A stretch of 64,000 bases of DNA from Clostridia bacterium (GTDB lineage: Bacteria; Bacillota; Clostridia; TANB77; UBA1234). Positions 1 to 31,765 of this stretch are shown here, in pieces. Location: contig JAFWVJ010000022.1 in assembly GCA_017518295.1 (NCBI GenBank), forward strand, positions 19,614 to 83,613. Direction: 5' to 3'. How positions within the stretch are numbered: position 1 is the stretch's first letter; each line of letters opens with the position of its first letter. The notes below the pieces were generated by a model. That model saw only the letters and a list, made by a program, of their open reading frames with translations. It was not told where the DNA came from and did not search any database. The translations under genes were made by a program, and so were the position numbers.

Positions 1-354
1 AGCACGGACGAAATTGTTAAACTCAAAGAGACAGCTGTTACGATGGGATTTAGTTATCCAAGGATGTTGCTTCATTGCTTAATTCCTTACATCACACCAT
101 CGCTTGTTGCGTCATTCATCAATTTGTACGCAGTAGGCTGGACCTATGTGGTTATTGCTGAAACAAACAATACACAATATGGTCTTGGACATCTCATGTA
201 TATAGGTGGTGCTCGAGGAAAAACAGCAATGGTTTTTGCAGCAATCATTACGTTGTTTGTTTTTAGCAAACTTTTCAATATGATTGCAACGTGGATAACT
301 CGAAAGATTTTCAAATGGAGGATCGAAGATGAAAAAAAGAGTGTTACGGCTTGA
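1..354 (+). CDS. ABC transporter permease (TauC/SsuC-like inner-membrane component), 5' end cut by window edge
   Basis: Open frame from position 1 with no in-window start; hydrophobic C-terminal permease segment; immediately followed by and overlapping an ABC ATPase gene. Confidence 0.7.
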   Translation, partial: STDEIVKLKETAVTMGFSYPRMLLHCLIPYITPSLVASFINLYAVGWTYVVIAETNNTQYGLGHLMYIGGARGKTAMVFAAIITLFVFSKLFNMIATWITRKIFKWRIEDEKKSVTA

Positions 355-1105
355 TAACATCAGCCTATCATTTGGCGAGAATGAACTCTTTGCCAATATG
401 GATTATGAATTCAAGCCTGGCATTTATGCTTTTTCCGGTCCTTCAGGAGTTGGAAAAACCACATTGATGCGCATGATTGCCGGACTTGAAAAAAGGTATC
501 AGGGAACCATTAGCATCGAAAAAGATGTTGAAAAGAAACTTGATAGTACTCAGCCTGAGTATAGTTTGTTTGGGATTGATCAAATGATTGTCAGTGAAAG
601 GTCTATCATCGAGAAACCTATTCCTGAGATTCATATGGTACATCAACACTATAAAAGTTTTCCGTGGCTTACATGCATAAATAATGTTTTGATGGTATAC
701 AAAGGTCACAAGGTTAGACCGACAGCTAAAGATAGAGAAGAAGCTTTAGAAGTTCTCGATAGACTCGGAATTAAAGAGCATGCAAAAAAATTGCCCACTC
801 AGATTTCCGGTGGACAAGATCAGCGTTTATCACTCGCAAGTGCTTTTGTGAATAAGTGGAGTGATGTAGTACTCTACGATGAACCTACATCTGCACTTGA
901 TGAACAGAATGATATGCTGGTTGTTAATCTTATCAGAGAACATCAAGCTAAATATAATACCATCGAAATTATTATTACTCATGAGCAACACGTTATTGAT
1001 GCACTTAATCCCACGATAATTGAGTTTACGCCAGAGTTTAGGTTAAGACCTTCAAAACCTAAAAAGGAGGTAGCAGAAAATGAAGCTGTTCAAACAGTTT
1101 TATAA
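329..1105 (+). CDS. ABC transporter ATP-binding protein (nitrate/sulfonate/taurine type)
   Basis: Walker A GPSGVGKTT, ABC signature LSGGQ, Walker B LYDEPTSALD; RBS GGAGG 7 nt upstream of ATG. Confidence 0.9.
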   Translation: MKKRVLRLDNISLSFGENELFANMDYEFKPGIYAFSGPSGVGKTTLMRMIAGLEKRYQGTISIEKDVEKKLDSTQPEYSLFGIDQMIVSERSIIEKPIPEIHMVHQHYKSFPWLTCINNVLMVYKGHKVRPTAKDREEALEVLDRLGIKEHAKKLPTQISGGQDQRLSLASAFVNKWSDVVLYDEPTSALDEQNDMLVVNLIREHQAKYNTIEIIITHEQHVIDALNPTIIEFTPEFRLRPSKPKKEVAENEAVQTVL

Positions 1106-1814
1106 GTATTTTATTATTCTGTTTAGTTTAATTCTTTTTATCGTTTTGAGAATCGCTTTTGGTAGTAATATCTTCATCTATATTCTGACTGCCCTGATTG
1201 GCGTTGCTCTTTATTATGGTATTTCATTCTACTTCGATTACAAACAAAAAGAGTTGGAATCGAGTTATGAATATCAGAGCAAAAACATGTCAGAAAAAAA
1301 TGAAAGTGAGCTTTCTCAGATTGTAGAAAAGCTCCAGGAGATGGGCGAGAATAAATCAGGCTTTAGAAATGTCATCCTTGAGTTCTTGAGTAAAGTTGAT
1401 TCTTTTGTTCAAAAAGAAAAAGCACTTAATGAACTCATTCAGATGAATGATGATAAAGCTAAGAGATTTTTGCAAGAACGTAGTCAGGCTACAAATAGTT
1501 TTATTATTGCTAACGCAAAGAAACTTATCAAAGCCATGATTGCATATGATGCACAGTCTAAGAAAAATCGTCCTGCCAGGATTGAAGATGTAGAGATTGT
1601 TCAGGATGTGCTTAAGAGCATGGACAGTCTCACTACAAACTACGATCAGCTTTTGGAAGAAGTTGCTAAAATGGGTGATGACTTTAATCCAGAAGATCCA
1701 GGTTTAAGAGATGTTGTCGAAAATCTTCAAGAGATAAGAAAAACTTCTAACGTCGACGACAGCGATAACGAACCAGAAGAAATTCATCTTTTTGTTAATG
1801 GAGCGTCAAGCTAA
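1080..1814 (+). CDS. XpaC-like membrane protein (5-bromo-4-chloroindolyl phosphate hydrolysis protein family), two N-terminal TM helices plus coiled coil
   Basis: RBS AAGGAGG before ATG; two TM helices followed by a long charged helical region typical of the XpaC family, which co-occurs with TelA. Confidence 0.45.
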   Translation: MKLFKQFYKYFIILFSLILFIVLRIAFGSNIFIYILTALIGVALYYGISFYFDYKQKELESSYEYQSKNMSEKNESELSQIVEKLQEMGENKSGFRNVILEFLSKVDSFVQKEKALNELIQMNDDKAKRFLQERSQATNSFIIANAKKLIKAMIAYDAQSKKNRPARIEDVEIVQDVLKSMDSLTTNYDQLLEEVAKMGDDFNPEDPGLRDVVENLQEIRKTSNVDDSDNEPEEIHLFVNGASS

Positions 1815-1843
1815 CTCGCGGTTTTTTTGAAGGAGTGATAATC

Positions 1844-3337
1844 ATGAAGAATAGAAAGACACGGATCTTAGGTCTTGTTGTGATTGTAGTTATCCTTTGT
1901 GTAGGAATGATTGGAGCAGATAAAATTATTTCTGCTGTCCACAAAGAACCTGCCAAGCCCTACAATCCGAATGACGTTAAAGAAGTTACAATTTCGCTTG
2001 ATGAATGGATCGGATGGAAACCTTTGATTTATGCCAATGGTGGTTTAACAACTACTCAAGATAGTATCAATGCAAGAAATGGTATCAGAGTTCGTTACGT
2101 AGTAATGAATGATGCAAGTACTTCTTCTGCTGGGCTCATCTCTGGAGAACTTCAAGGTGCAGGTTATACAGTTAACCGTTATGCATTCTTGCAGAACAAA
2201 TTTGATGATGCCGGTGTAGAAGTATCAATGCCTTACATCACTAACTATTCAAATGGTGGTGATGGTATCATTTCAAAAGCTTCTATCAAGTCTGTAAAAG
2301 ATCTTGTCGGAAAAAAGGTTGCTGTTCCGAGATTTTCTGAAGCACAAACTTTGGTTGAATGGTTAATCACCAACGCCGGGTTGACTGAAGAAGAAATCTT
2401 GAGTATTCGTAAGAACATGGTTTACTTCGAGACAGCTGATGACACTGCGGAAGCATTCTTTGCTGGAAGCGTAGATGCGGCTGCTACCTGGGAACCTTAT
2501 CTTACACAGGCAGCAAGTTCCACTAATTCGAGAATTTTGTTCGATACATCTATGGGAACAAATCTTATCTTGGATGGACTTGTTTTCAGAAAAGATTTTA
2601 TAGAACAAAATGAAGACTTTATCGTGAAACTGATTGATGGTGCACTCGAAGCAAACAGCATGTACTTGAGAGAATTTGAATCCATTAAAGTTATGCCTAT
2701 GTTTGAACTTATGGATGCAGATGAAATCAAAGAGATGTGTGCTAACGCTTCAGTTGCAACCTGGGCAGATAACATGAATCTTTTGAATACAACTGCTGTA
2801 ACTATCTACAAAGATATGGCCAACATTTGGATTTCGGTTGGAGAAACTGCAAAACCTGAAAAGGCAGAAACAGCTTTTACAACCAAGTATGTAGAAGCTC
2901 TGCAAGCTAAATATCCAAATGATGATGTTACTTCTTTTGCTTTTTCAAGTGAAGGAAGACAAGCTGCACAGCAGATTAATAACAATTCTGCACTGCTTTC
3001 AGTAAGACTCGATATCAAGTTTGAAACAGACTCTTACAAAATCTCTAGTGATTCTTTTCCTGCACTTGTTGAATTTGCAGAAACTGCTAAAGTGCTAAAC
3101 GGTGTATATATCCAGATAGAGGGAAACACCGCAAAAGTAGATGGCGATGATGGTAAAGACTTCTCGTACAAGAGAGCAAGAAGCGTTGCAAAATATCTGC
3201 AAGCTCTTGGAATTGATTCTCGTAGATTTATTATCATAGGTAATGGAGATACTAATCCTATCGATACAAATCTTACTGAAGAAGGCAAGGCCAACAATCG
3301 TCGTACTGAAGTATTCTTCAAAACAATAGGTTACTGA
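1844..3337 (+). CDS. Membrane-anchored ABC substrate-binding protein (NMT1/SsuA-like) fused to a C-terminal OmpA-like peptidoglycan-binding domain
   Basis: N-terminal TM anchor; periplasmic-binding-protein core; C-terminus has OmpA motifs (NGDTNPID... NNRRTEV). Start moved to ATG 1844 (RBS GAAGGAG, spacing 8). Confidence 0.7.
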   Translation: MKNRKTRILGLVVIVVILCVGMIGADKIISAVHKEPAKPYNPNDVKEVTISLDEWIGWKPLIYANGGLTTTQDSINARNGIRVRYVVMNDASTSSAGLISGELQGAGYTVNRYAFLQNKFDDAGVEVSMPYITNYSNGGDGIISKASIKSVKDLVGKKVAVPRFSEAQTLVEWLITNAGLTEEEILSIRKNMVYFETADDTAEAFFAGSVDAAATWEPYLTQAASSTNSRILFDTSMGTNLILDGLVFRKDFIEQNEDFIVKLIDGALEANSMYLREFESIKVMPMFELMDADEIKEMCANASVATWADNMNLLNTTAVTIYKDMANIWISVGETAKPEKAETAFTTKYVEALQAKYPNDDVTSFAFSSEGRQAAQQINNNSALLSVRLDIKFETDSYKISSDSFPALVEFAETAKVLNGVYIQIEGNTAKVDGDDGKDFSYKRARSVAKYLQALGIDSRRFIIIGNGDTNPIDTNLTEEGKANNRRTEVFFKTIGY

Positions 3338-3428
3338 TAACTTTCATGTAGCGGATGTCCAAAAGGATGAAATGACATCCGCTACTTTTTTTGAGGTTTT
3401 TCAATCACCGAAATGGAGGTATAAGGAA

Positions 3429-5102
3429 ATGAAGAATCGGAAAATTACTATTCTTGCCATGCTTGTCGTGTTTGTTTTGATGCTTTCAGGATGCGAACTT
3501 GGTACTTCAACCAAGATTGATCCTGCCGCTGTTAACTACGACAATGTCATTTCATATATCGATGACCTGAAAATCGGCCTTTCAAAAGTAACCCCTGTTA
3601 AAGGAACTGTTCCTGAAAGAGCAGCTACTAATGATACAAGCACGATGGTCATGTATGAGCTTCCGGATATCTCAAGTTATGATCCAGTTGTAATTGGTAA
3701 GGCACCTAACAATGTTGAAGTGTTTTTACCTCTCGAAGATAACAATAGTAAAATCAGCCAAGTTGTAGAAAGTGCTGCGCGTAAGTATAACGAAGAACAT
3801 GAAGGTGTTTCTTCTATAACTCTGCGCATCCTTGAATCTGAACTTGCAAACGATTTTATTAAATCAGGAGCTTATCTTCCTAAGGGCTACATTGCCTCGA
3901 ATGAACTCTATGGCTTGATGCTCAAAGAAAATGGAATCAAAGTCAGTAAAGTTACAGATAGGCTTGTGGGAAATACAATTGGTGTAGTAATCAAGAAAGA
4001 ATCCAGTAACAAGATTAAGATTGAAGATCCTGAAAAAATGTTTGATTCAATCTTCAAATCAGTAATGAATGGCGAGATTAAGATTGGATATCCCAATCCT
4101 ACAAACAATCCGTCAGGACTTAATTTTGTTATTTCGATGCTTTCGTACTTTGATAGCACGAATCCTTTCAGCATGGAAGCAACTACAGACTTTAGCGCAT
4201 TCCAAAGTAAAGTATCAGTTGCATACTCTACAAAGCAGCTTAAAGAATCTGCAAATAGAGGAGAAACAGATGGCTTTGTGATGGAATATGAAGCTTTCCA
4301 AAACGATGCTTCGCTTAAGGACTACGGATTCGTTCCGTTTGGTGTACGTCATGATTATCCGCTGTATGCAGTGGGTGATGTGAGTGAAGCAGAAACGAAA
4401 GTACTTAGCGAGTTTGCCAAAGTATTTGAAGAAACAGGTGTCAAAGAAATGGCAACAGAAGCTGGATTTGATAAAAATGAAAACTACAAATCTAGCGTGA
4501 ATGCTGGTGCTTATGATGGCTTGATTGGTGAAGTGCTTGATTTCTTCAAGACTGAAAAGAAGTCGGGTAAGAAAGTTGCTGTATTTTTTGTATGTGACAA
4601 ATCTGGAAGTATGGCTGGTAAAAAGATTAATGCCCTAAAAGAATCTGCTCTTAATGCTATGCAGTATATAGGAGAAGACAATCTTGTAGGACTAATTACT
4701 TACGATAGTGGTGTATATCTGAACCTGCCTCTTGCAGAGTTTAATACCGAACAGCAGGAATTCTTCGCAGGAAGTATTCAGCAGCTTGGTAGTGGTGGAG
4801 GTACTGCAACAAACAATGCATTGCTTCATGCACTTAAACTGCTTGATGGCTACTACAGAGAACATCCTGATACTATCCCGATGATTTTCCTTTTGAGTGA
4901 TGGCTATACCGAAAGTGGATATTCATTAAGCGGTGTAAAGTGTCTGATTAGTGCTTTTGATATTCCGATTTATACAATCGGTTATGAAGCCAATCTCGAT
5001 GAACTTAAATCTATTGCAAATATCAATAATGGTGTATTTATTAATGCATCTACAGATGATGTAGGATATATTCTTAAATCTCTGTTTGATGCTCAAACCT
5101 AA
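3429..5102 (+). CDS. Lipoprotein with C-terminal von Willebrand factor A (vWA) domain
   Basis: Lipobox LSGC after signal peptide; MIDAS motif DKSGSM, downstream GGGT and LSDG motifs; start at ATG 3429 with GGAGG RBS. Confidence 0.75.
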   Translation: MKNRKITILAMLVVFVLMLSGCELGTSTKIDPAAVNYDNVISYIDDLKIGLSKVTPVKGTVPERAATNDTSTMVMYELPDISSYDPVVIGKAPNNVEVFLPLEDNNSKISQVVESAARKYNEEHEGVSSITLRILESELANDFIKSGAYLPKGYIASNELYGLMLKENGIKVSKVTDRLVGNTIGVVIKKESSNKIKIEDPEKMFDSIFKSVMNGEIKIGYPNPTNNPSGLNFVISMLSYFDSTNPFSMEATTDFSAFQSKVSVAYSTKQLKESANRGETDGFVMEYEAFQNDASLKDYGFVPFGVRHDYPLYAVGDVSEAETKVLSEFAKVFEETGVKEMATEAGFDKNENYKSSVNAGAYDGLIGEVLDFFKTEKKSGKKVAVFFVCDKSGSMAGKKINALKESALNAMQYIGEDNLVGLITYDSGVYLNLPLAEFNTEQQEFFAGSIQQLGSGGGTATNNALLHALKLLDGYYREHPDTIPMIFLLSDGYTESGYSLSGVKCLISAFDIPIYTIGYEANLDELKSIANINNGVFINASTDDVGYILKSLFDAQT

Positions 5103-5104
5103 TC

Positions 5105-5172
5105 GTAACGGCGACTATTAGTCGCCAAACAATAAAAAACTCCGTGAGAAATTTCTCACGGAGCTTTTTTTA
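5105..5172. terminator. Bidirectional intrinsic terminator (two hairpins) between convergent vWA lipoprotein and TelA genes
   Basis: ggcgactattagtcgcc; ctccgtgagaaatttctcacggag plus T7, with an A-run on the other side. Confidence 0.8.
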
Positions 5173-5887
5173 GATTAACAAGAGTTTGTTTTGCACTAAC
5201 AATGTTGTTTATTGAAATTTGATTTTTCAAAAGTGGAATAGTAACGTTTATGATAGTACTAATTCGTTCTAGCACTCTAGTATCTGTTGCAAGGAGCATT
5301 TCAACTTGTGCAATATTTTGCATTACAACAGTACGAGAAACTGCTAAGTTATTAAGCCGCCTTCTAAATGTATCAAGATGTTGGAATGTTTTTGGAGTTT
5401 CTTCAAATTGTGCAATTCTTTTTTGACCAGCTAATATATAAAGAGAAATTTCTTTATAATATTTTTTGTTGGTCTTAAGAATCTTTTTAAGAAAATCCAT
5501 GTCTTGCATAATAGTAAGTTGATAGTCACGTAGCCTTGCAATAATCTCTTCAATGTTATTTTTGATTTTGTTGTACTCAATTATTAAAGTATTTGTAGCA
5601 TTTCTTTTAATAAATCCGATTGGACTATTTAAAGAAGCACTATCTGTCCGCAAAGAATTAAAACTTGCAGTTAAGCTCTCAAAAATTCTATCGATATCTT
5701 CTAAGTCTTTTGTTTTTATCTGACTTAAAATTTTATCACTAGATTCTGAAAGTTTCTTTTGCGGTTCCATACCATAATTAAGCACTAAGTTAAGATCAAA
5801 AATATCAATTTGTGGAACAAGATTATAGGCAAGGGAGAGCTCTTGCTCAGTAAATTCACTCTCATCAATTAGTATCACATCTGCCAC
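5156..5887 (-). CDS. TelA/KlaA-family toxic-anion-resistance protein
   Basis: Coiled-coil protein with TelA-like N-terminal region; GTG start with GGAGG RBS at spacing 8; size like KlaA (about 250 aa). Confidence 0.6.
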   Translation of the reverse strand: MADVILIDESEFTEQELSLAYNLVPQIDIFDLNLVLNYGMEPQKKLSESSDKILSQIKTKDLEDIDRIFESLTASFNSLRTDSASLNSPIGFIKRNATNTLIIEYNKIKNNIEEIIARLRDYQLTIMQDMDFLKKILKTNKKYYKEISLYILAGQKRIAQFEETPKTFQHLDTFRRRLNNLAVSRTVVMQNIAQVEMLLATDTRVLERISTIINVTIPLLKNQISINNIVSAKQTLVNLKKAP

Positions 5888-6061
5888 TTTTATTTCCTCC
5901 TTAATAGAAAAGGTTGATATATCAATATATTATTCACGCATATAATATCATAGATTTACATAAATAGCAATACAACAAGAGTCATTTGTAAACGAAATTA
6001 TGTAAAATATTTTAACGGTTGCAACAAATTGATTTTACGTAACCTTTGGTACAAGCGACAA

Positions 6062-6088
6062 ATGTTTTTAATAAAATATTAAAAACAT
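6062..6088. promoter_or_regulatory. 27-bp perfect palindrome (12-bp arms, 3-bp spacer) in the TelA / kinase-like divergent promoter region; candidate operator
   Basis: atgtttttaata-aaa-tattaaaaacat; 13 bp upstream of the -35 of promoter 6101-6129; outer arms match those of the ~30-bp element family. Confidence 0.55.
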
Positions 6089-6100
6089 TTCAAAAATCGG

Positions 6101-6129
6101 TTGACAAATTGCATTATGCATGGTATAGT
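6101..6129 (+). promoter_or_regulatory. Sigma-A-type promoter for 6199..7275
   Basis: TTGACA-17 bp-TATAGT. Confidence 0.7.
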
Positions 6130-6198
6130 CTTCATGTATTAAAAATAGTTACTCTTTGAATTGTGTACGATTCATTAATTATAAGGGAGGATACTTTT

Positions 6199-7275
6199 AT
6201 GAGGCTTCGGGGCTACCAAGAAATCATGGGTGCTAATCGACCAGAAGAAATCTTTACTATGAATCCTGCTACTTTGCAAAAAGAATATGAAGCATATTGT
6301 GAGCAGTATAAACCGAACCAACAATTTCATGAGATAAGAAATTTTGTTGCAAGTCAGCAAATAAAATTTCTTTTCAAAAAAGCAAAAGAAATTCTTGGTT
6401 CTAAGAGGGAAGATACTGATGACTATGGTTCTACTATTTCGCTTTGCTCTGCAAATGGAGAAAGCATCGTCTTTGAATATGATGATCATATGGATCAGAG
6501 AGTATGTGATACATACATCAATGATCAAGAAATTCTTATGACTGTTGATTCAAAGTACGAAGTAAAAGGATTGTTTTCAAACTTTGTTGAAAAAGTTGAA
6601 GAGTTTATTTCTACTTGGGAGAACAAACTTCCAAACTGGAAAGATTTTCAGTATTCTATTCCACAAGTTGTTAAGTCTTTTAGAACTTCGGATAAATCCA
6701 AATATGTACTGCTTATTAAAAAGCCGTGCAAGATTTATCCTTTAAGAGAAGTACTTAACTTCTTTGGTGGAAGGATGAATGTGAAGCATGTGATTTCTAT
6801 CATCAAGCGGCTTTATAGTTATGCTTGTTGGTTGGATATTGCAGGTATGACTCACAATGGTATCTGTATAGACAATATTTACTTTTCTCCGGGAAGTGAA
6901 GTTGCGCCAGGCGAGAAATATTCTGTTAAAGATATTAGAATAGTTGGCTTGTATGGCGGATGGTTTTTCACCACAAGTAAGAATGAAAAAATTACTGCAC
7001 TTCCTATGGATGTAAGAGATATTGTTCCTGAGTTTGTCGAAAAGACAGGATACTCTTCTTTTGAAGTAGATATGCTTTCCATTAAGAAAGTTGCTCGAGA
7101 ACTTTTAGGTGATGTTACAGGCAAAAACTTGTATGGTGTTCATAGCAAACTTTGCGATTGGTTCAATAGAACCACTTGTCAAAAGAATGCTTATGAGGAG
7201 TACAGCGAATTCGAAAGAATTTGCGAAGAGGTTTTTGGTAAAGCTAGATTCGTCGATATCGACGTTTCTATATAA
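6199..7275 (+). CDS. Hypothetical protein with atypical protein-kinase-like catalytic-loop motif
   Basis: Strong sigma-A promoter TTGACA-17-TATAGT and RBS AAGGGAGG; motif HNGICIDNIYF resembles kinase catalytic loop HxDxxxxN, preceded by a VLLIKK lysine strand; no clear DFG. Confidence 0.5.
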   Translation: MRLRGYQEIMGANRPEEIFTMNPATLQKEYEAYCEQYKPNQQFHEIRNFVASQQIKFLFKKAKEILGSKREDTDDYGSTISLCSANGESIVFEYDDHMDQRVCDTYINDQEILMTVDSKYEVKGLFSNFVEKVEEFISTWENKLPNWKDFQYSIPQVVKSFRTSDKSKYVLLIKKPCKIYPLREVLNFFGGRMNVKHVISIIKRLYSYACWLDIAGMTHNGICIDNIYFSPGSEVAPGEKYSVKDIRIVGLYGGWFFTTSKNEKITALPMDVRDIVPEFVEKTGYSSFEVDMLSIKKVARELLGDVTGKNLYGVHSKLCDWFNRTTCQKNAYEEYSEFERICEEVFGKARFVDIDVSI

Positions 7276-7310
7276 GCTGCCTCAAAATAATTTAAAAGGA
7301 GGAATTTTAA

Positions 7311-8267
7311 ATGGGTGGCAGTCCTACTACATCTGCTCAGGTGAGCTCCTACTATAATACGCACAAGGATATTAAGAAGGCTACAAGTGTGCGGGAAGTA
7401 TTTAAGTCGAGTGGTCTGAATGAACTTATGGATCCTTCGAAACTGAAGAATGGATTCAGGGATTCCAGCGACTCCGTGGAAAGCCCCAACTCTCGGGCTA
7501 TTGCTATCGGATTTGATGAGACCGGTTCCATGGGACATATTCCTTTCACATTCGTGCAGGATGGTTTCCCGAGGTTCATCAATATGATTCAGGGTGGAGC
7601 CCTGGGATATGATCCTCACATTCTCTTCGCCGCGATTGGCGATGTGAAGAGTGATGATTCTCCGCTCCAGGTTTCGCAGTTTGAAGCGGACAACCGTATG
7701 CTGGATCAGCTTCGGCTTTTCTACATCGAAGGAAACGGCGGCGGAAATGATGGTGAAAGCTATCAGATTCCGTGGTACTTCCTGGCCAAGCATACCAAGA
7801 TTGCATGCTTCAACAAGAGGGCCCAGAAAGGTATCTACATTTCTATCGGCGATGATAAGCCGCACCCGGAGACAACTGTGTATCAGTTCAAAAAAATCTT
7901 CGGTGACAAAGAAAGTGTAGAAAGAGCCTACAAGACAACCGAGCTTCGCGATATGGCACTGGAAAAATGGAATCTTTTCCATGTGCTTATTTCCGAACGC
8001 GGATACGGTAGTTACCATGTGGAAGAAACCTGGAAGAGGCTTCTTGGAAATCACATCGTTATCCTGGATGATCACAGGTATGTTGCTGAAGTTTTGGCAA
8101 CCATTCTCAAGATGCAAAATGGTGTTGAGCGCAATGAAGCAATCGACATGATTGAAGACACCGATGCAAAGAAGGTTGTGCGCAGTGCCTTCAAGAATTT
8201 TGAAATCTATGAAGATGGTGCTACCGGAATCGGCGAAGCCACCAAGGAAGGTCTGGAATTCATTTAA
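7311..8267 (+). CDS. vWA-like (TerY-like) domain protein, G+C-rich gene
   Basis: RBS AAAGGAGG; MIDAS-like FDETGSMG, GNGGGNDGES and SIGDD motifs; composition clearly more G+C-rich than flanks. Confidence 0.6.
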   Translation: MGGSPTTSAQVSSYYNTHKDIKKATSVREVFKSSGLNELMDPSKLKNGFRDSSDSVESPNSRAIAIGFDETGSMGHIPFTFVQDGFPRFINMIQGGALGYDPHILFAAIGDVKSDDSPLQVSQFEADNRMLDQLRLFYIEGNGGGNDGESYQIPWYFLAKHTKIACFNKRAQKGIYISIGDDKPHPETTVYQFKKIFGDKESVERAYKTTELRDMALEKWNLFHVLISERGYGSYHVEETWKRLLGNHIVILDDHRYVAEVLATILKMQNGVERNEAIDMIEDTDAKKVVRSAFKNFEIYEDGATGIGEATKEGLEFI

Positions 8268-8353
8268 TCAAATGATACAAAAGAGAAGATGATGATTTTA
8301 TCATCTTCTCTTATTCTTCTTTTAAATTCTTTTTAAGGAAAGGAGAATTTATT

Positions 8354-9586
8354 GTGGTAAAGTCGTGCTCCATAGTTATTGGAGCTGGTCTCGGTGATGA
8401 AGGAAAAGGCCATTATACAGATATTTTGTGTAACAAACCGAACACACTTAATATTCGTTTTAATGGTGGACCGCAAGCAGCACACACTGTGGTGACTCCT
8501 GATGGAATGAAACATGTATTTCGGCATTTAGGAGCAGGGACCTTCACTGGTGCAACCACATATTTGAGTGCAGACTTTTTGATTAATCCTATCGAGTTTG
8601 TGATGGAGAAAACAAAGTTCATTAGAAAGTTTAAATATAATCCTACAGTAATTGTGAATTTGAATTCTCCAGTAACAACTCTTTACGATATGTATATCAA
8701 TCAAGCAGTGGAAGAGTATCGCGACAAATCCCGTCATGGAAGTTGTGGTATGGGCATTTGGGAAACTTGTGAGAGAAACAATAACCCAATGTTTAAAATC
8801 ACTGTAAGAGAGTTGTCTTTTAAAGAAATCTTGAGAGAAAAGCTTAAGAGGATAAGAGACATCTATGTGCCAAAGAGATTGAAAGAAGAGTATGGAATAG
8901 AAATTACCGATTTGGTAAATCTTTCTAAAGATTATCCATCTTTACTTGTAAGCGATGAGACAATCGATATGTTTTTATTCTATGCTGAAGAATTTTTGTC
9001 GATGGTAATAGTAAGAGATGACTCTATCATCAATAGTTTTGAAAACTTGGTATTTGAAGGTGCTCAAGGATTGGGACTTGATGAAAACAATCCTGATTGC
9101 AGTGTGGATTTTCTCACTCCATCAACTACAGGTGTTACAAATGCAATGAGAATTCTTAAGACTGCAAAGTATAAAGGAGAACCGGATATTTATTATATTA
9201 GTCGACCTTATGCCACAAGACATGGTATGGGACCTCTGGAACATGAAGTAGGGAAAACTCCTTACAAGAAGGTTTTAGATGAGACTAATGTAAAAAATGA
9301 ATATCAAGGAGAATTAAGATTTGCTTACATAGATTTTGATATACTTGCTAGAAGAATCAAAAGAGATATCCAAAAAATCAGTATTCCTTCCACTATAAAC
9401 ATTGGATTCACGTGTTTGGATCAGCTAGATGAACCTGTCGGAATTAGCGAAGGTGGAATTCTTATTAATAATCGCTCTGCAGATTTTATTAATAAGGCAA
9501 CTAACTATTTTAGAAAAGCTATTCCGAGTATAAATGGTTTTTCTGGAACGTATGGACTGACACGAGATGAATTTGAAGAATTTTAA
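8354..9586 (+). CDS. Divergent adenylosuccinate-synthetase (PurA)-like ligase
   Basis: GTG start with AAGGAAAGGAG RBS; PurA-like motifs GDEGKGH and RFNGGPQAAHTV but diverged from canonical GDEGKGK/GGHNAGH. Confidence 0.7.
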   Translation: MVKSCSIVIGAGLGDEGKGHYTDILCNKPNTLNIRFNGGPQAAHTVVTPDGMKHVFRHLGAGTFTGATTYLSADFLINPIEFVMEKTKFIRKFKYNPTVIVNLNSPVTTLYDMYINQAVEEYRDKSRHGSCGMGIWETCERNNNPMFKITVRELSFKEILREKLKRIRDIYVPKRLKEEYGIEITDLVNLSKDYPSLLVSDETIDMFLFYAEEFLSMVIVRDDSIINSFENLVFEGAQGLGLDENNPDCSVDFLTPSTTGVTNAMRILKTAKYKGEPDIYYISRPYATRHGMGPLEHEVGKTPYKKVLDETNVKNEYQGELRFAYIDFDILARRIKRDIQKISIPSTINIGFTCLDQLDEPVGISEGGILINNRSADFINKATNYFRKAIPSINGFSGTYGLTRDEFEEF

Positions 9587-9596
9587 ATTCAAAAAT

Positions 9597-9640
9597 AAAT
9601 ACCGCTATGCAAAATTTGCATAGCGGTATTATTTTTATTT
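9597..9640. terminator. Bidirectional intrinsic terminator
   Basis: ataccgctatgcaaaatttgcatagcggtat plus T-run. Confidence 0.8.
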
Positions 9641-9901
9641 GGTTGTATAGGAAAGACCATTTCCCAAAGACATAGTCATGCCTCGATTGGTATTGAAGGT
9701 AGTTCCATTGGGGAGCACGTAGCTGATTGAAGTAAGTCCTTTTTTGCTGTAGTTTGCATAGATTTTGGTCTTTGCAGACTTAAGTTTTGCACCGCAATCG
9801 GGGCAATAACAGCAATCCTGAGAGAATACTTTTTTACAAGCATCACAACTCATAAGGACCGTTTCACTCAGAAGCTGGCGTGCCTTATAGTTGATTCCCA
9901 T
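9635..9901 (-). CDS. Small zinc-ribbon protein
   Basis: CDAC...CYCPDCG Cys pairs; shares a bidirectional terminator with the upstream gene. Confidence 0.5.
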   Translation of the reverse strand: MGINYKARQLLSETVLMSCDACKKVFSQDCCYCPDCGAKLKSAKTKIYANYSKKGLTSISYVLPNGTTFNTNRGMTMSLGNGLSYTTK

Positions 9902-9923
9902 TGTCTTACTCCTTCAAAAATAA

Positions 9924-11606
9924 TCAGCGGGGCATAACGGCCGTTGCCTTTTTCTTGGCAGGAGCCTTCTTGGCGGGCACGGCAGGAGCAGCGGGAGCAG
10001 GTTCAGCAGTGGGAGCAGCAGCCTTATTTACCAGGCCGTTTCCGCAGTAGGGACAGAACTTGGCTTCTTCAGGCACTTCTTTGCCACACGCTTTGCACAC
10101 ATTGGCGCCGATCTTGGCACCGCACTTGTGGCAGAACTTTGCGCCGTCCTTCAGAGGTTCCCCACACTTGGGACACACATTGCCGGCTGCTTTGACTTCG
10201 CCACCACATTCGGTGCAGAACTTGACTTCGGGATCATCGAACTTTTTGCCGCAAGAAGTGCAGACATACTGTCCAGGCACAGCGGCGGCCGCGGCTGCGG
10301 GAGCACCGATTCCGGGAATCACGGAAGTAATTCCGTTCATCATATCACCCAGCGGGTTGGCATTGTTGCCACCACCCAGCAGGTTGGAAAGCAGAGTGAT
10401 CTTCATGAAATCATTCATTCCGCCTTCACCGCCATCGCCCATCATCATCATCATCATCATGATGTTGGGGCTGCCATCGGGATTGGTGATACCCAGGCTG
10501 CCGTCTTTGGAAGCCATCAGCATAGGCAGGAACATACCCAGGCCGTTGAAGCTGTCATCGTTGATGTCATCCAGGCTGAACTCAGCCTTGTCATTGTCCA
10601 TCATCTTCATCATCAGCATAGCGCCCAGGACATTGCCGCCCATGTTCTGCTTGGAGTTCGGATCCAGCAGGGTCTTACCATCGAAGGCGATAACTTCAGT
10701 GTAGAAGTTGAAGTCAGGGATCAGGGAGTCGTTGTTCACGAACGTTTCGATAGCACCAGTCTGGGCATTCACGCCAGTGAAGGTGTTATCATTGTTGATG
10801 CTCTGCACCCAGTAGTACTTGCCATCACGCTTGGTCAGCTTGCCCACGGTCAGGTTCTTAACCGGAACCACGATAATGGGGAAGTTACCCAGCTTCAGAT
10901 TCAGCATATCCTTACGGGTGCGGGTCGCGGGGTCGAAAGCATACCATTTTCCGTTTTCGGGATTCTGAACGACGATGCCGGTCAGAGTGGACTTGATCCG
11001 AGGATCCTTGTTGATACCCATTTCCATACCAGAGAAGAGCTTACCGAAACCTTTCATACTAAATCCTCCTTTATTATCCTCAATGCCGTGATATACGGCA
11101 AGAGCTTCTTTGACTTCGTTCAGTTTAAACTGAACTACACAAGTGACGGAACCTTTGTTGAAGTACATGCTGCTGTTGGGAGTAAGTTTGTTAATACCAA
11201 TACATACTTCTTTTTGACTGCAGTAAGGAAACTGCTGACAATCACGTGCTGAGAGCCAATTGGTACTAACATTCACATCAAAGCTAATATAGTCCGACTT
11301 ACGAGCAAGAACTTTTTCGAGCTGTTCGATAAATTCATTGATAGTAAACTCAACAGTTTCAAAGTAAACATGCTGATGAGGACAAAAACTAGAAAAGTTA
11401 ATCAAAAGCTTGTTGGGTTCTCCTGTCGGAATAGTAGTACGAATATTACCAGACCAAAACCGAACAAGAGAATTATCAAAGAATGGAGTAGTGCACGGAC
11501 TTCTACTGTTTACCTCAACCTGATTTGATGGACCATGAGTATAAAGGTCGAACATCCATCTTGTGGGTACAAGTTTCCGGATCAGAGAAGTATCACCCTT
11601 GGACAT
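9924..11606 (-). CDS. Large protein: unknown N-terminal domain, poly-Met/Gly low-complexity linker, four C-terminal zinc-ribbon (CxxCG) repeats, Ala/Pro/Lys tail
   Basis: RBS AGGAGGG before ATG; CxxCG...CxxCG x4; (ATG)7 trinucleotide run encodes MMMMMMM; the C-terminal half is strikingly G+C-rich. Confidence 0.7.
   Translation of the reverse strand: MSKGDTSLIRKLVPTRWMFDLYTHGPSNQVEVNSRSPCTTPFFDNSLVRFWSGNIRTTIPTGEPNKLLINFSSFCPHQHVYFETVEFTINEFIEQLEKVLARKSDYISFDVNVSTNWLSARDCQQFPYCSQKEVCIGINKLTPNSSMYFNKGSVTCVVQFKLNEVKEALAVYHGIEDNKGGFSMKGFGKLFSGMEMGINKDPRIKSTLTGIVVQNPENGKWYAFDPATRTRKDMLNLKLGNFPIIVVPVKNLTVGKLTKRDGKYYWVQSINNDNTFTGVNAQTGAIETFVNNDSLIPDFNFYTEVIAFDGKTLLDPNSKQNMGGNVLGAMLMMKMMDNDKAEFSLDDINDDSFNGLGMFLPMLMASKDGSLGITNPDGSPNIMMMMMMMGDGGEGGMNDFMKITLLSNLLGGGNNANPLGDMMNGITSVIPGIGAPAAAAAAVPGQYVCTSCGKKFDDPEVKFCTECGGEVKAAGNVCPKCGEPLKDGAKFCHKCGAKIGANVCKACGKEVPEEAKFCPYCGNGLVNKAAAPTAEPAPAAPAVPAKKAPAKKKATAVMPR
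10440..10460 (-). repeat. (CAT)7 / (ATG)7 trinucleotide microsatellite inside a coding sequence (poly-Met)
   Basis: catcatcatcatcatcatcat on the top strand, encoding MMMMMMM in 9924..11606. Confidence 0.8.
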
Positions 11607-11779
11607 GTAATCCCTCCTAAAAAATATTTGTCTCTTAAAAGAGACACCGATTAAGTATCATTACGTGAATATTTATACCATGGATTTTACGTTATGTCAA
11701 TATGTTTTTATTAAATAAAAAATAAAAAATGCCGAAATTTCAATATTTTGAAACTTATTAACAAAATATTAAAAACAGC

Positions 11780-11809
11780 TTGACAAATATTATGTTGTTT
11801 TGATATTAT
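11780..11809 (+). promoter_or_regulatory. Sigma-A-type promoter for 11948..12685, preceded by the shared upstream sequence aaaatattaaaaaca
   Basis: TTGACA-17 bp-ATATTA (or 18 bp-TATTAT); 15-nt identity with 6073-6087. Confidence 0.55.
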
Positions 11810-11947
11810 AGAAATGTTATTAACATTTTGAGAATAACATAAGTGCTGATATATCTTGATAATTATGTTAACGCGTGATATAATCGCGTAGCAAAATATA
11901 GTTTTTTGGGTTACCCTTATCTATTTTGAAAGGAGACAAAAACTGGT

Positions 11948-12685
11948 ATGATGGATCCAACTTGGCAAGCAATAATTGGTGTAACAGCACCTATTGTTGT
12001 AATAACTATTCTTGTTTGTTTAACTTCTTACTTTGATAATGGTTGGGTTCTTGGAATTGGTTTTATTGTTTATTTTGTAGGAACATTTTTACTAGCCTGG
12101 CTAGTAGGTCAATCTAATATAGACTTCGTAAGAGAATATCCGTTTAAAAATATTTGTTTTGCATCTTTGATACAACTTGCAATTATGTTTGTCACACTTC
12201 ATGTCTCAGCTTTTATTGAGGAAATGTTTTGCTCTAGTGAGGGGACAGGTTTTGTTAGTTCTTTTATTGTGATTACTATTATAGTTGCAATAATATCTGC
12301 AGCACTTATTAGTAATCACATCAAGACTTTAGATAGAGAGTTTGTAGAAACAGATGAAGTGGTTGAAGTTAGATACGAACTTTCTAGTGATGAAGATGGT
12401 AAGTTTATTTATTATGCATCTAAAAGTGCAACAGAAGAAGGATACTACTTAGTTATCTATAAAGAAAATAATGAATTCAAAACTATGAAAATAAAAGAAT
12501 CTAAACTTTCTATTTTGGATTCTGTTGAATCAGATGAAAAGAATTTTCTTATAGAGAAAAAAGCAATTCATAAAAAGCAATGCACCAACGATGATTCATT
12601 TAAAACAGAAACAAAAGTTGATACTACATATATGATATATGTGCCAGGTGGTGCAGCTAATATAGGATTTGTTACTGCAAAATAA
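11948..12685 (+). CDS. Membrane protein (4 TM) with soluble C-terminal domain
   Basis: Promoter TTGACA-17-ATATTA upstream; RBS AAAGGAG; hydropathy. Confidence 0.6.
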   Translation: MMDPTWQAIIGVTAPIVVITILVCLTSYFDNGWVLGIGFIVYFVGTFLLAWLVGQSNIDFVREYPFKNICFASLIQLAIMFVTLHVSAFIEEMFCSSEGTGFVSSFIVITIIVAIISAALISNHIKTLDREFVETDEVVEVRYELSSDEDGKFIYYASKSATEEGYYLVIYKENNEFKTMKIKESKLSILDSVESDEKNFLIEKKAIHKKQCTNDDSFKTETKVDTTYMIYVPGGAANIGFVTAK

Positions 12686-12725
12686 AAAGAAAATATATTT
12701 TTGAATTATAATCTAATTTAAGCTT

Positions 12726-12756
12726 AAAAGCAGGGAAGTATTCCCTGCTTTTTTCG
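12726..12756 (+). terminator. Intrinsic terminator
   Basis: gcagggaagtattccctgc plus TTTTTT. Confidence 0.8.
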
Positions 12757-12817
12757 TTGAAAAAAATATATGCTTTATATATAATAAAATCGCAGATTAA
12801 AGTGTGGAGGAGTGCTA

Positions 12818-13117
12818 ATGAATCAGATTAAAAGAATTGAAATCATGGAAGAAAAATATATTAAATCTCAAAAAGCTATTAAAGAATTAAATAAAGCTTT
12901 GAAAGAATATAGCAAAGCTCAAGATAGTATTCGAGAATTGGCATCATATTATTCTAGCCCAGAATGGAAAAAAGATTTTTTAGATGATGAAAAAGGAAGG
13001 CTTCCAAAAGAATTAAAAAGGGGAGTGCTTTCAGAAGATGGAGTATATAATTTATTAGATGATAATATAGAAATGCAAAAGAAGTTGTGTAGAACGGTAG
13101 AAAAAAGCATATCATAA
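12818..13117 (+). CDS. Small coiled-coil protein (DUF4298-like)
   Basis: ATG 12818 with GGAGG RBS at spacing 7 is preferred over the GTG 12812 used by the ORF track. Confidence 0.5.
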   Translation: MNQIKRIEIMEEKYIKSQKAIKELNKALKEYSKAQDSIRELASYYSSPEWKKDFLDDEKGRLPKELKRGVLSEDGVYNLLDDNIEMQKKLCRTVEKSIS

Positions 13118-24637: not shown

Positions 24638-24667
24638 AAATGATTTTTGGACCTGCCTTAAAAAACA
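24638..24667. repeat. Palindromic ~30-bp element, copy 1 (right arm degenerate)
   Basis: aatgatttttggacctgccttaaaaaacag; about 22 bp upstream of the start of 24689..25423. Confidence 0.8.
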
Positions 24668-24688
24668 GAAACAAAAGAGGAGAACGAT

Positions 24689-25423
24689 ATGAAAAAATTA
24701 ATTCCAGCAATTATAGCAGTAATTATTATAGCGGTAGTTGCAATTATAGTAATGTTAAATAATGCTAACAATGCCAACAATATCAACAATGCAAAGAAAG
24801 ATCCAATTAATTCTACATCAGGAGAGATAATTGAGGTTACTAATAACACTTCTGGTGAAGAAAACAAAGAAGAAAATAAAAACACATTAGAGGATTATTT
24901 AAATGACCAGGTTTGGCTAAGTGAGAACTTATTTATAACAAGTGGTCAATGCGATGTTGGACTGACACAAACACAACAAGTTCATTTTATAAAAACATCA
25001 GATAATACAGGGTTTCTTAAGATTGAAGTAATTGAACCATATGGAATTGATGAATATCTATTGATTGGAATGGATAATGGAACTATTAAAATTGTTGATA
25101 TAAAACGCGATACTGGATACTTTAGTTCATTCGATTTTGCACATGGAGAATTCTTGTATGATACAAATAAAAACACATTTTATTATTGCGTTGAAGATTT
25201 GGATGGAGACTATATAAAACAGGATGTTATTTTTACGATTGATGGATTTGACGTAAATATAATAAAACAAATAATTATAACAGGCGAGGATAATGATTTT
25301 GTAGAAAATAATAAAGAAGTCGAGCAAATGCTTGAAGGATATGATTTTAAAAAGATAGATAATAAGTTGTGCACGATTTATTATCCTGAAATTTATAAAA
25401 AAGATAGTAAATACGATTTTTAG
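24689..25423 (+). CDS. Membrane-anchored secreted protein, paralog family A (with 26275..27900)
   Basis: N-terminal signal anchor; conserved TLEDYLND..WLS and IFTIDGFDVNII blocks shared with the paralog; preceded by palindromic element copy 1. Confidence 0.65.
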   Translation: MKKLIPAIIAVIIIAVVAIIVMLNNANNANNINNAKKDPINSTSGEIIEVTNNTSGEENKEENKNTLEDYLNDQVWLSENLFITSGQCDVGLTQTQQVHFIKTSDNTGFLKIEVIEPYGIDEYLLIGMDNGTIKIVDIKRDTGYFSSFDFAHGEFLYDTNKNTFYYCVEDLDGDYIKQDVIFTIDGFDVNIIKQIIITGEDNDFVENNKEVEQMLEGYDFKKIDNKLCTIYYPEIYKKDSKYDF

Positions 25424-25512
25424 ATAGTATATTATGAATTATTAATCATTAATGGAAATATAGATAGTGAGTATAGCTTTAAAAATAATGCTAGAGCAAA
25501 GTCAAAAAAATA

Positions 25513-25544
25513 AAAAGACAAGGAAATGATTCCTTGTCTTTTTT
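25513..25544. terminator. Bidirectional intrinsic terminator
   Basis: aaaagacaaggaaatgattccttgtctttttt. Confidence 0.8.
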
Positions 25545-25556
25545 CGATTTTAATCA

Positions 25557-25778
25557 TCAAAGTGGAGTGCTAATTGGCACCTGCTTCCCATCTTTCCAAC
25601 ATTCAATCAGCTGGCTCTCCAATTCAGAAAGTTGCATGCAAAACGGACACTGAAAATATTTTATTCTATAAACATGCTTCATTCCGATGAATGGGAAGTG
25701 TTCATTCCGGTGAGATTCGTGGATTTGCTCCTCGCTTACACTTACTTTCTGCTTACAGTTAGAACACAAACGCTCCAT
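25557..25778 (-). CDS. Small Cys-rich (zinc-finger-like) protein
   Basis: CSNCK...CPFC; GGAGG RBS. Confidence 0.45.
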   Translation of the reverse strand: MERLCSNCKQKVSVSEEQIHESHRNEHFPFIGMKHVYRIKYFQCPFCMQLSELESQLIECWKDGKQVPISTPL

Positions 25779-25888
25779 AATATAAATACCTCCAAAATTA
25801 TTTTTATTGTTATACGGGAGATAAGAATTAATGTGTCAAACACAAATAATATTATACCACAAGTTTACATAACTTTCAAGAAATTTTT

Positions 25889-25914
25889 GAGTTTACATAC
25901 GAATTTAACATATA
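25889..25914 (+). repeat. 26-bp direct repeat, copy 1 (gagtttacatacgaatttaacatata)
   Basis: Exact 26-bp match to 33254-33279; both lie in non-coding DNA about 100-400 bp upstream of palindromic-element copies. Confidence 0.7.
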
Positions 25915-25990
25915 CAGAAACAGAATATATAGAAGCAAAAAAGATTTGAGAAGGTAAAGTAGTGCTATCGAGTCTCCTTGCCAAATTGAA

Positions 25991-26020
25991 AATGTTTTTT
26001 GGACCTGTCCCCAAAAACAA
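25991..26020. repeat. Palindromic ~30-bp element, copy 2
   Basis: aatgttttttggacctgtccccaaaaacaa; about 30 bp upstream of ATG 26051. Confidence 0.85.
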
Positions 26021-26050
26021 GCATCTTTATGGTAGAAAAGGAGCGAAGAA

Positions 26051-26273
26051 AATGAATGAAGAAAGGAAAAATGAACAAAAATCAAAAGCAGATGAACTAA
26101 CTGAAAGTCTAGATAAGGTTTTAGTAAAAGCAGGATACGGACCAACAAAAGTGACAGAAAAGATTTGTATCAAGAAGAAGTGTGGTATAATAATTCCAAG
26201 AGATTTAATTATGTTTTTCGGACCTGTCCCAAAAAACAAGTCCCAAAAAACAAGAAGCAAAAGAGGAGAATGA
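26051..26273 (+). CDS. Small hypothetical protein, C-terminus read through palindromic element copy 3
   Basis: RBS AAAGGAG before ATG 26051; the ORF-track ORF 25962..26273 starts inside element copy 2, so the internal start is preferred. Confidence 0.3.
26209..26254. repeat. Palindromic element copy 3 plus tandem duplicate of its right arm (tcccaaaaaacaag x2)
   Basis: tatgtttttcggacctgtcccaaaaaacaagtcccaaaaaacaag; upstream of 26275..27900. Confidence 0.85.
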
Positions 26274-26274
26274 C

Positions 26275-27900: not shown

Positions 27901-27903
27901 ACT

Positions 27904-27933
27904 TGCCTTTTTGGACCTGTCCCAAAAAACAAG
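27904..27933. repeat. Palindromic element copy 4 (left arm degenerate), overlapping the stop of 26275..27900 and upstream of luxS
   Basis: ttgcctttttggacctgtcccaaaaaacaa. Confidence 0.8.
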
Positions 27934-27963
27934 TTTCAAAAACAAGAAGAAAGGGTTGAAGAA

Positions 27964-28453
27964 TATGAAAAAGATTGAAAGTTTTAAAGTTAATCATGAG
28001 TTGCTAAAAAGAGGTGTGTATGTTTCGCGAAAGGATTACAATTATGAAACAGGTGAAGTGATAGCAACTACTTTTGATATTCGAATGAAGGAACCTAATA
28101 GAGAGCCTGTAATGAATATTGCGGAGGTTCACACTATTGAGCATTTAGGAGCAACCTTTTTGAGAAATCATAAAGATTATAAGAAGGAAACGATTTATTT
28201 TGGACCAATGGGTTGTCGCACGGGCTTTTATGTAATTTTTAAAGGCGATTTGGATTCAAAGGATGTAGTTGGAATTATTAGAGAAATGTTTGAATTTATT
28301 TCAAAATATGAAGGAAAGATTCCAGGAGCAGATCCAAAATCTTGCGGAAATTATTTAGACCAGAATTTGCCAATGGCTAAATTTGAGGCAAAGAAATACT
28401 TGGATGAAGTTTTGAAGAAGATTAAAAAAGAAAACTTAGTTTATCCAAATTAA
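27964..28453 (+). CDS. luxS: S-ribosylhomocysteine lyase LuxS
   Basis: HTIEHL metal-binding motif, PMGCRTG, CGN; ATG 27964. Confidence 0.9.
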
Positions 28454-28454
28454 A

Positions 28455-28484
28455 AATGATTTTTGTACCTGTCCCAAAAAACAC
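28455..28484. repeat. Palindromic element copy 5
   Basis: aatgatttttgtacctgtcccaaaaaacac; between luxS and the Mbeg1-like gene. Confidence 0.85.
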
Positions 28485-28505
28485 GACAAGAATGGTGAGG
28501 TGGCT

Positions 28506-29624: not shown

Positions 29625-29649
29625 TTTTTGGGACAGGTACGAAAAACAT
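29621..29649. repeat. Palindromic element copy 6a (opposite orientation), overlapping the TGA stop of 28506..29624
   Basis: atgatttttgggacaggtacgaaaaacat. Confidence 0.85.
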
Positions 29650-29653
29650 GTAA

Positions 29654-29684
29654 AAATGTTTTTCGGACCTGTCTCAAAAATCAT
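29654..29684. repeat. Palindromic element copy 6b, overlapping the stop of the LysR gene; full-length 31-bp palindrome
   Basis: aatgtttttcggacctgtctcaaaaatcatt. Confidence 0.85.
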
Positions 29685-31748: not shown

Positions 31749-31765
31749 TTAGAGGAGGAATAACA

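Follow-up and report, generated by a model that had tools for sequence, protein, structure and literature searches.

The DNA analysed here, called the window throughout, comprises 64,000 nucleotides of contig JAFWVJ010000022.1 (assembly GCA_017518295.1) from an uncultured rumen/gut Clostridia bacterium; its closest records were metagenome-assembled genomes from sheep rumen and similar samples. Near one end of the window lies a cassette of five genes in two convergent units, and upstream of the first unit, facing a TelA-family gene on the minus strand (5156-5887), stands an AT-rich palindrome that we call P1. An earlier note on this DNA had proposed that P1 and a dispersed 30-bp element share one regulator, tying the TelA/vWA cluster to the genes marked by the element. 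Our analysis upheld the dyad-like behaviour of P1 and its relation to sites in a second control region, and did not support the links to the 30-bp element and to TelA. The main features of the cassette and its two control regions are as follows.

6062 to 6088, no strand: P1, a 27-bp dyad, ATGTTTTTAA-taaaata-TTAAAAACAT, within a perfect repeat at 6060-6090; centre at about −60 from the predicted start site
6092 to 6096, plus strand: A-tract (AAAAA) between P1 and the −35 hexamer; AAAA invariant in the alignments
6101 to 6129, plus strand: near-consensus sigma-A-type promoter, TTGACA (6101-6106), 17 nt, TGgTATAGT (6121-6129, extended −10)
6158 to 6173, plus strand: hairpin or dyad in the 5′ untranslated region (UTR), GAATTG-TGTA-CGATTC, about 25 nt before the ribosome-binding site, present in all cassette clades
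6199 to 9586, plus strand: operon of the P1 promoter, encoding a kinase-fold protein (6199-7275), a vWA-like protein (7311-8267) and a PurA-like protein (8354-9586)
9598 to 9630, no strand: bidirectional terminator-like hairpin between the two convergent cassette units
9635 to 11606, minus strand: second cassette unit, zn560 (9924-11606) and zn88 (9635-9901), recognised by Pfam and translations and conserved with the operon
11672 to 11700, minus strand: zn560 promoter, TTGACA (reverse complement of 11695-11700), 17 nt, TGgTATAAA, directly preceded by AATAAAAACAT-A
11752 to 11778, no strand: S2, a P1-like site, AACTTATTAA-caaaata-TTAAAAACAG, containing a 15-mer of P1 and ending 1 nt before the TTGACA at 11780
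11780 to 11809, plus strand: near-consensus outward promoter at the cassette edge, TTGACA, 18 nt, TGaTATTAT
11814 to 11840, no strand: P3, ATGTTATT-aacattttgag-AATAACAT, with the 8+11+8 layout of P1, overlapping the predicted start of the outward promoter

The P1 dyad and the promoter of the kinase operon

The perfect palindrome previously described at 6062-6088 was found as stated, reading ATGTTTTTAATA-AAA-TATTAAAAACAT, and the perfect inverted repeat proved longer than claimed, with 14-bp arms spanning 6060-6090. A third-order Markov model of the window predicts 0.1 perfect inverted repeats (arms >=12, loop <=5) per 64 kb; a model of intergenic composition gives 0.07 per 10 kb. Twelve were observed, P1 alone being >=90% A+T, and 8 of the 11 others consist of a G+C-containing stem flanked by A-runs and T-runs. 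P1 also folds as a DNA hairpin better than its shuffles (z = −5.8), as does P3 (z = −3.2). The P1 palindrome is real and non-random.

Conservation was examined in an alignment of seven P1 sequences, those of the window and of loci L002, L023, L024, L025, L026 and L062. Upstream regions were reached through protein homology (81% identity for L002, 83% for L026, 73% for L023, 66% for L024 and 58% for L025), or, for L062, through a DNA pattern search; protein identity to the window across the P1-bearing loci was 54-83%. The pattern ATG(T/A)TTTTA(A/T)-N7-TTAAAAACAT was present in all seven, exactly 12 nt before an invariant TTGACA. Eighteen of the 20 arm positions were invariant, as were all 6 positions of the −35 hexamer, against 0 of the 7 positions of the centre and 2 of the 30 positions immediately upstream (arms versus non-motif positions, Fisher p=3e-9). 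The sole G and the sole C of the site never varied, while central A/T positions did, an A-run having become a T-run in L023. P1 shares with generic transcription-factor operators their conserved half-sites, a free spacer, and a fixed register to the core promoter. The dyad of L025 follows the end of a terminator by 4 bp, so that the conserved block begins at the dyad itself. In L024 and L026 a left-arm T has become A with no compensating change in the right arm, which places the constraint on sequence rather than on pairing or hairpin formation, and a hairpin-driven function of P1 was rejected on this ground. We likewise rejected P1 as a pair of back-to-back promoters, such as those in L016, because no minus-strand −35 was found at the mirror position in any locus, and P1 as a regulatory site of TelA, because TelA adjoins the cassette only in this species whereas P1 travels with the kinase-like operon that carries it. 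A scan of a metagenome collection for the dyad followed by 12 nt and TTGACA returned two contigs, in both cases upstream of the kinase-like gene of this operon, and no other location. Genome RGIG6952 (contig JAFYBZ010000041) is among the carriers of P1.

The promoter downstream of P1 was confirmed as TTGACA-17-TATAGT; the gap between the palindrome and the −35 hexamer is 12 nt, one fewer than had been noted. This promoter scores 11 of 12 consensus matches and carries the TG of an extended −10, with transcription of the kinase operon predicted to start at about 6134-6136. P1 ends 110 nt before the start codon. A-tracts recur at about −42, −53 and −62 (6092-6096, 6081-6085 and 6073-6076), some 10-11 bp apart, and the first of these looks like a proximal UP-element subsite; an unrelated promoter at 39765 has a similar CAAAAATG-TTGACA. 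In P1 the sequence AAAAACA stops 14 nt short of the −35. Of the window's 16 strongest promoters, only the outward cassette promoter at 11780 has AAAAACA within 16 nt of the −35, so the sequence is not a general promoter feature of this genome.

The hairpin in the 5′ UTR is kept upstream of the kinase-like gene in every clade (34-100% protein identity), with symmetric (compensatory) changes; it was seen in the window and in L002, L010-L017, L022, L027 and L029, in variants that include GTGAAAT-GCTA-ATTTCAC, GTAAGAT-TGTA-ATCTTAC and AGAATTGAA-CTA-TTCAGTTCT. Its fold energy in the window copy is weak. Its conservation is wider than that of P1, and it looks like an RNA-level control element. Rfam 15 yielded no gathering-score match in the window, and none at E<=1 in 5890-6200 or 11600-11950. 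To the left of P1, homology of the cassette ends at about 5998, with P1 some 60 bp inside and nothing there comparable to the conserved block at the right end of the cassette (see below). At this left homology end, L002 has a perfect 15-bp palindrome, ATGTAAATTTTACAT (about 5786-5800), of which the window retains a decayed form, ATGTAAAATATTTTAAC (about 5999-6016).

Related sites in the second control region and the 30-bp element

A 15-mer of P1, AAAATATTAAAAACA, was said to recur just upstream of the outward promoter. The copy is exact and lies 2 nt before TTGACAAAT, at 11763-11777, one position from where it had been placed. Since a window should hold about 18 pairs of exact 15-mer repeats, the recurrence alone is not significant. 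Comparison over a longer span was more informative: the 30-mer of P1 matched 11751-11780 (S2) at 24/30 positions and 11811-11840 on the minus strand (P3) at 24/30 positions, each with p~0.002 in simulated AT-rich intergenic DNA. P3, which the earlier note had missed, is the sole other match in the window, at <=2 mismatches, to ATGTTTTT-N11-AAAAACAT, with 0.011 expected in the 341-bp region. Transcription is predicted to start at about 11816 (plus strand) from the outward promoter and at about 11665 (minus strand) from the zn560 promoter. S2 is centred at about −50 of the outward promoter and about −100 of the zn560 promoter; together S2 (about −50) and P3 (+11), 62 bp apart, bracket the outward promoter.

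Orthologues of S2 were found in L002, L066, L024 and L067, which with the window makes five species, and the copy in L024 is a better palindrome, AAATTATTAA-N7-TTAATAACAA. P3 is conserved in L002 and L066, and absent in L024 and L067. The outward promoter is conserved in L002 and L066 (TTGACG) and decayed in L024; the zn560 promoter is conserved in all four. In the zn560 promoters of relatives an A-tract and then ACA stand just before TTGACA without exception.

Several further observations concern this region. A hairpin, TGTCTCTTTTAAGAGACA then AATATTTTTT, lies directly before the zn560 ribosome-binding site (11629-11646, minus strand) and is kept, with changes, in L002, L024, L066 and L067; it is a possible leader attenuator or translational hairpin. 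The right end of the cassette is a non-coding block of 115 bp (11725-11840) that is 90-100% identical among the window, L002 and L066, where the proteins are 74-81% identical. Homology among these three ends 0-1 nt after P3, beyond which the flanks are unrelated. Within the block are S2, the outward consensus promoter and P3; it has no open reading frame (ORF) >10 codons (by eye), no Rfam match, and 0 matches in viral contigs. In L029 (48% identity, without P1), a sequence of about 34 nt, TAGTAACA-N6-AAATAACTTG, abuts TTGACA at both cassette promoters, that of the kinase operon (about 1700-1760) and that of zn560 (about 7150-7215), and the promoter spacers are similar too. This pattern suggests either that the two cassette units of L029 are co-regulated through a shared upstream element or that the promoters were duplicated.

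The 30-bp element to which P1 had been likened served here as a comparator outside the P1 system.

33680 to 33708, plus strand: best copy of the 30-bp element, ATGTTTTTTGG-ACCTGTC-CCAAAAAACAT
24640, 25992, 26211, 27904, 28456, 29621 (minus strand), 29656, 32587, 33105 (variant) and 45941 (minus strand): other copies of the element

Copies of the element read AAAATG(A/T)TTTTTGGACCTGTCCCAAAAAACA. The outer arms are indeed shared, in that the 8-mers ATGTTTTT and AAAAACAT are common to P1 and the best element copies (e.g. 33680-33708). The spacing that was thought to be fixed is not: the 8-mers stand 11 nt apart in P1 and 13 nt apart in every element copy carrying both, and the span from ATG to CAT is 27 bp in P1 and 29 bp in the element. 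A search with the half-sites that had been proposed for both, ATGNTTTTT-N11-AAAAANCAT, found six element copies (0.04 expected) and missed P1 even with one mismatch allowed. The element core, GGACCTGTCC(C) between a T-run and an A-run, is conserved, whereas the P1 core, AATAAAATATT, varies between species, and a terminal CAT is present in only 4 of about 10 element copies. Eight of the 10 typed copies are oriented with plus-strand genes, and copies lie 20-40 nt before the start codons of unrelated genes (HD-like, NADase-translocation domain, LuxS, Mbeg1-like, WG-repeat), not upstream of a −35; one (32587-32615) is in frame inside a NERD-HRDC ORF. P1 shows none of the three properties that mark this family, i.e. 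a conserved core, a 13-nt gap, and a co-oriented position 20-40 nt before a start.

A search of 325 kb of cassette-bearing loci yielded no 30-bp element, its core had 0 matches in viral contigs, and none was found in loci with Mbeg1-like orthologues (72% and 64% identity). In the first of these (L063, 72%, the nearest relative found), the Mbeg1-like gene is the immediate neighbour of a 610-residue gene of the same length as window ORF 33661-35493; the window has LysR, DHH and NERD genes between Mbeg1 and the 610-residue ORF, bounded by the elements at 29621/29656 and 33105/33680. The elements (24640-33708, 45941-45969) bracket genes that this relative lacks in its syntenic region, and may mark lineage-specific insertions. 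They are best classed with dispersed palindromes similar to repetitive extragenic palindromic (REP) sequences, being multi-copy, lineage-specific, oriented, imperfect and intergenic. P1 falls outside this category: each promoter has one copy, which accompanies its operon from species to species, and its core varies. With spacing, core, orientation and position all different, and the element absent from the relative's syntenic region, the supposed tie to the element-marked genes was not borne out, and the resemblance of P1 to the element is probably coincidental.

The cassette and its genomic contexts

All five cassette genes were found together in every one of the >25 loci fetched (tblastn), with the gene order of the operon conserved. 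The kinase-fold protein (358 amino acids) has no Pfam match; its AlphaFold model (pLDDT 85.7) matched PKA, CK1, Aurora and PknB in Foldseek with probability 1.0, and it is confidently predicted to adopt a protein-kinase fold. Its loop, HNGIxxDN, is atypical. The vWA-like protein (318 amino acids) carries a vWA-type DETGSMG motif and also lacks a Pfam match. In the second unit, zn560 (about 550 amino acids) combines four zinc ribbons with a Lys/Ala/Pro-rich tail, and zn88 is an 88-amino-acid zinc-ribbon protein. The kinase-like protein had 41 relatives at E<=0.001 among 5.8 billion clusters searched, and the cassette carriers were all uncultured Clostridia. For the cassette proteins, PADLOC gave no match, and NCBIfam and PADLOC together gave no informative family beyond PurA-like and zinc ribbons; the kinase-like and zn560 sequences had no significant match among solved structures; and a near-identical DNA search with window positions 5000-13000 against phage and plasmid collections returned nothing. 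In the literature we found nothing relevant on the element core or on TelA/vWA/kinase clusters.

The cassette was found in at least five unrelated genomic contexts. Elsewhere its neighbours are tRNA-Thr (L002), rplS/Cu-oxidase (L026), mnmE and jag/yidC (L029), or FtsH (L027 and L068). A second kinase/AdSS-like/PRK module lies next to it in L023 and L025, and a kinase and a vWA-like gene in L062. Across these genomes the module preceding the cassette (L023 396-5702, L025 519-5813, L062 28-1499) comprises five gene types: pyruvate-kinase-like, a 527-residue AdSS-like, PRK/uridine-kinase-like, Pkinase, and a vWA-like of about 320 residues. This arrangement suggests that module and cassette form a larger nucleotide-related system. 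In nearly all hosts the cassette is richer in GC than its flanks, in most of them by 5-17 points (41.5% vs 29% in the window), and the cassette is compositionally foreign to its hosts. A GC step in the window, from 34-44% in 1-12000 to 26-32% in 12000-64000, coincides with the right end of the cassette; the first 12 kb hold an ABC transporter, OmpA-domain proteins, vWA, TelA and the cassette. No recombinase or transposase was found in or next to the cassette.

Candidate roles of P1

The most credible reading of P1, probable but well short of certain, is that of a sequence-specific site for a dimeric DNA-binding regulator specific to the mobile five-gene cassette. The analysis shows the dyad, its non-randomness, the way it is conserved, the sites related to it and its setting in the cassette; that a protein binds there is inferred. 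Such a dimer would bind half-sites of about WTGTTWTTAA, 7 bp apart, and the same protein would also bind S2 and P3 in the second control region. The direction of regulation is a matter of prediction: at about −60 of the operon promoter the dimer could contact RNA polymerase, as in class-I-type activation, or could block upstream polymerase contacts, and the bracketing of the outward promoter by S2 and P3 would be a repressor-like layout. The identity of the protein is likewise conjectural. Within the cassette, zn88 and zn560 are the only candidates for dyad binding, one of them bearing the Lys/Ala/Pro-rich tail; that P1, S2 and P3 are bound by one of these zinc-ribbon proteins, as a non-canonical autoregulator, is an improbable proposition.

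Known systems offer partial parallels. CRP binds at −61.5 of lac, a class I activator site, and LysR-type recognition sites are centred near −65. P1 is similar in that its dyad lies about 60 bp upstream of the predicted start, always equally far from the −35 and on one helix face; measured from its own −35, S2 stands exactly 11 bp off this position. P1 differs in its 27-bp length, in the absence of TGTGA-N6-TCACA, and in having a promoter that is already near-consensus, and no CRP/FNR-type or LysR-type gene is linked to the cassette. The CIRCE operator of HrcA in Firmicutes is a 27-bp inverted repeat (9-N9-9) that acts as a repressor operator at several promoters of one regulon. P1 has the same size and plan, with conserved arms on either side of a variable spacer, but the sequences are unrelated (8/18 mismatches), and CIRCE is placed across or downstream of the start site, a position shared by P3 and not by P1. 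PadR-type operators (ATGT-N8-ACAT) share the outer ATGT...ACAT dyad; in P1, however, the spacing is N19 rather than N8, and no PadR gene is nearby.

A number of results weigh against an operator bound by a cassette-specific regulator. Neither L027 (54% identity) nor any clade at <=48% identity has the dyad, which is therefore dispensable for the cassette. Pfam, PADLOC and NCBIfam revealed no helix-turn-helix or other canonical DNA-binding regulator encoded in the cassette, nor was one identified outside it. The operon promoter is near-consensus with an extended −10, so that an activator should not be needed, and a site at −60 alone cannot occlude polymerase. The arms of S2 and P3 match those of P1 at only 16/20 positions, with per-locus p of 0.01-0.03, and orthologous loci are not independent tests. 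The P1 dyad on its own, without the promoter, had 31 unrelated matches in viral contigs, of which 0/31 were followed by TTGACA and none resembled the cassette promoter. Finally, comparison of 6040-6136 with sites for CRP/FNR, CIRCE, CodY, Rex, ArgR, TnrA, LexA, NrdR, PadR, LytTR, WalR and PhoP gave no convincing match (best matches, 1-8 mismatches); the only consensus sequences with <=2 mismatches are short, low-information AT-rich patterns.

Among the alternatives, the strongest, if still unlikely, is that P1 is promoter architecture, phased A/T-tracts forming an extended UP element or curved DNA that recruits alpha C-terminal domains, with the dyad symmetry incidental. Phased upstream A-tracts are reportedly found at Bacillus sigma-A promoters, and P1 resembles the UP elements and phased A-tracts of low-GC Gram-positive sigma-A promoters in its AT-rich composition, in the phasing of its A-tracts (at about −42, −53 and −62) by roughly 10-11 bp, and in the extended −10 (TGn) that accompanies it. 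The AAAA before the −35 is invariant, an A-rich proximal subsite (about −46 to −38) is present as AAAAA at 6092-6096, the 15-mer of S2, with TTGACAAAT as anchor, can also be aligned to the proximal A-tract (23/30), an A-tract and ACA precede TTGACA in every zn560 promoter of the relatives, and a strong consensus-type promoter fits a constitutive enhancer. For the distal UP subsite the consensus is AAAWWTWTTTT, placed at about −57 to −47, and constraint is not expected beyond −60. At these positions P1 reads TTAAAAACATT, and its conserved left arm lies instead at −75 to −66, with the invariant ATG at −74 to −72, outside the usual UP range (−38 to −59). An invariant G and C, dyad symmetry and a free centre are also unlike UP elements: the central A/T positions change freely, even from A-run to T-run (L023), and other strong promoters of the window are without AAAAACA. 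A slim chance attaches to the idea that palindromes of the P1 type serve as signals for structure or recombination instead of transcription-factor sites: they would form hairpin or cruciform ends that are recognised in trans, like those of passenger elements flanked by palindromes. The unrelated contexts of the cassette, its raised GC content and the hairpin scores of P1 and P3 agree with this idea, as does the right-end block, more conserved than the proteins, and because the three-species homology stops exactly after P3, a structural or cassette-end role keeps its place among the explanations. It is opposed by the lack of a recombinase or transposase, by the position of P1 about 60 bp inside the left homology end, by the absence of P3 from L024 and L067, by the uncompensated arm change in L024 and L026, and by the fixed register of P1 to the promoter.

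The model of the earlier note, in which one regulator recognises ATG[A/T]TTTTT half-sites in both P1 and the 30-bp element and so links TelA/vWA to genes at 24-34 kb, we regard as very improbable. It draws on the common outer 8-10 nt (AAATGTTTTT on the left, AAAAACAT on the right), on the layout of 10-11 nt arms around a 7-nt centre in both (ATGTTTTTAA-N7-TTAAAAACAT in P1, ATGTTTTTTGG-ACCTGTC-CCAAAAAACAT in the element), and on the rarity of such sharing; with ATG[AT]TTTT occurring about 26 times elsewhere in the 64 kb, chance would produce it at a few per thousand, a rough estimate before multiple-comparison correction. Set against these are the differing spans, the failure of the half-site pattern to recover P1, inner arm bases that are GG/CC in the element and conserved AA/TT in P1, a centre conserved in the one and variable in the other, the terminal CAT missing from most element copies, and the mostly gene-co-oriented placement of elements shortly before start codons. 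Moreover, the cassette with which P1 moves is foreign in composition to its hosts, and the element is absent from the cassette loci, from viral contigs and from the syntenic region of the closest Mbeg1-like relative. That P1 is a functionless chance palindrome is scarcely credible. Intergenic DNA of this genome is about 72% A+T and the relaxed dyad pattern has its 31 unrelated viral-contig matches, but a window should contain only 0.1 such repeats, the arms stay unchanged over 54-83% protein identity while the flanks drift, and this conservation pattern already refutes it.

P1 is an ordinary kind of feature, a promoter-proximal dyad, in an uncharacterised cassette. One false lead has been removed, as shared control of the 30-bp repeat and the TelA cluster with P1 is unsupported by the analysis. 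The value of P1 lies in the handle it provides on a rare, uncharacterised and strictly co-conserved set of five genes: the putative operator, the near-consensus promoter, the conserved 5′-UTR hairpin and the ultra-conserved end block are targets for finding the switch of the cassette. If a cassette-encoded zinc-ribbon protein were indeed the autoregulator, the cassette would be regulatorily self-contained as it moves between hosts, and the 115-bp block would be both its control region and its end.

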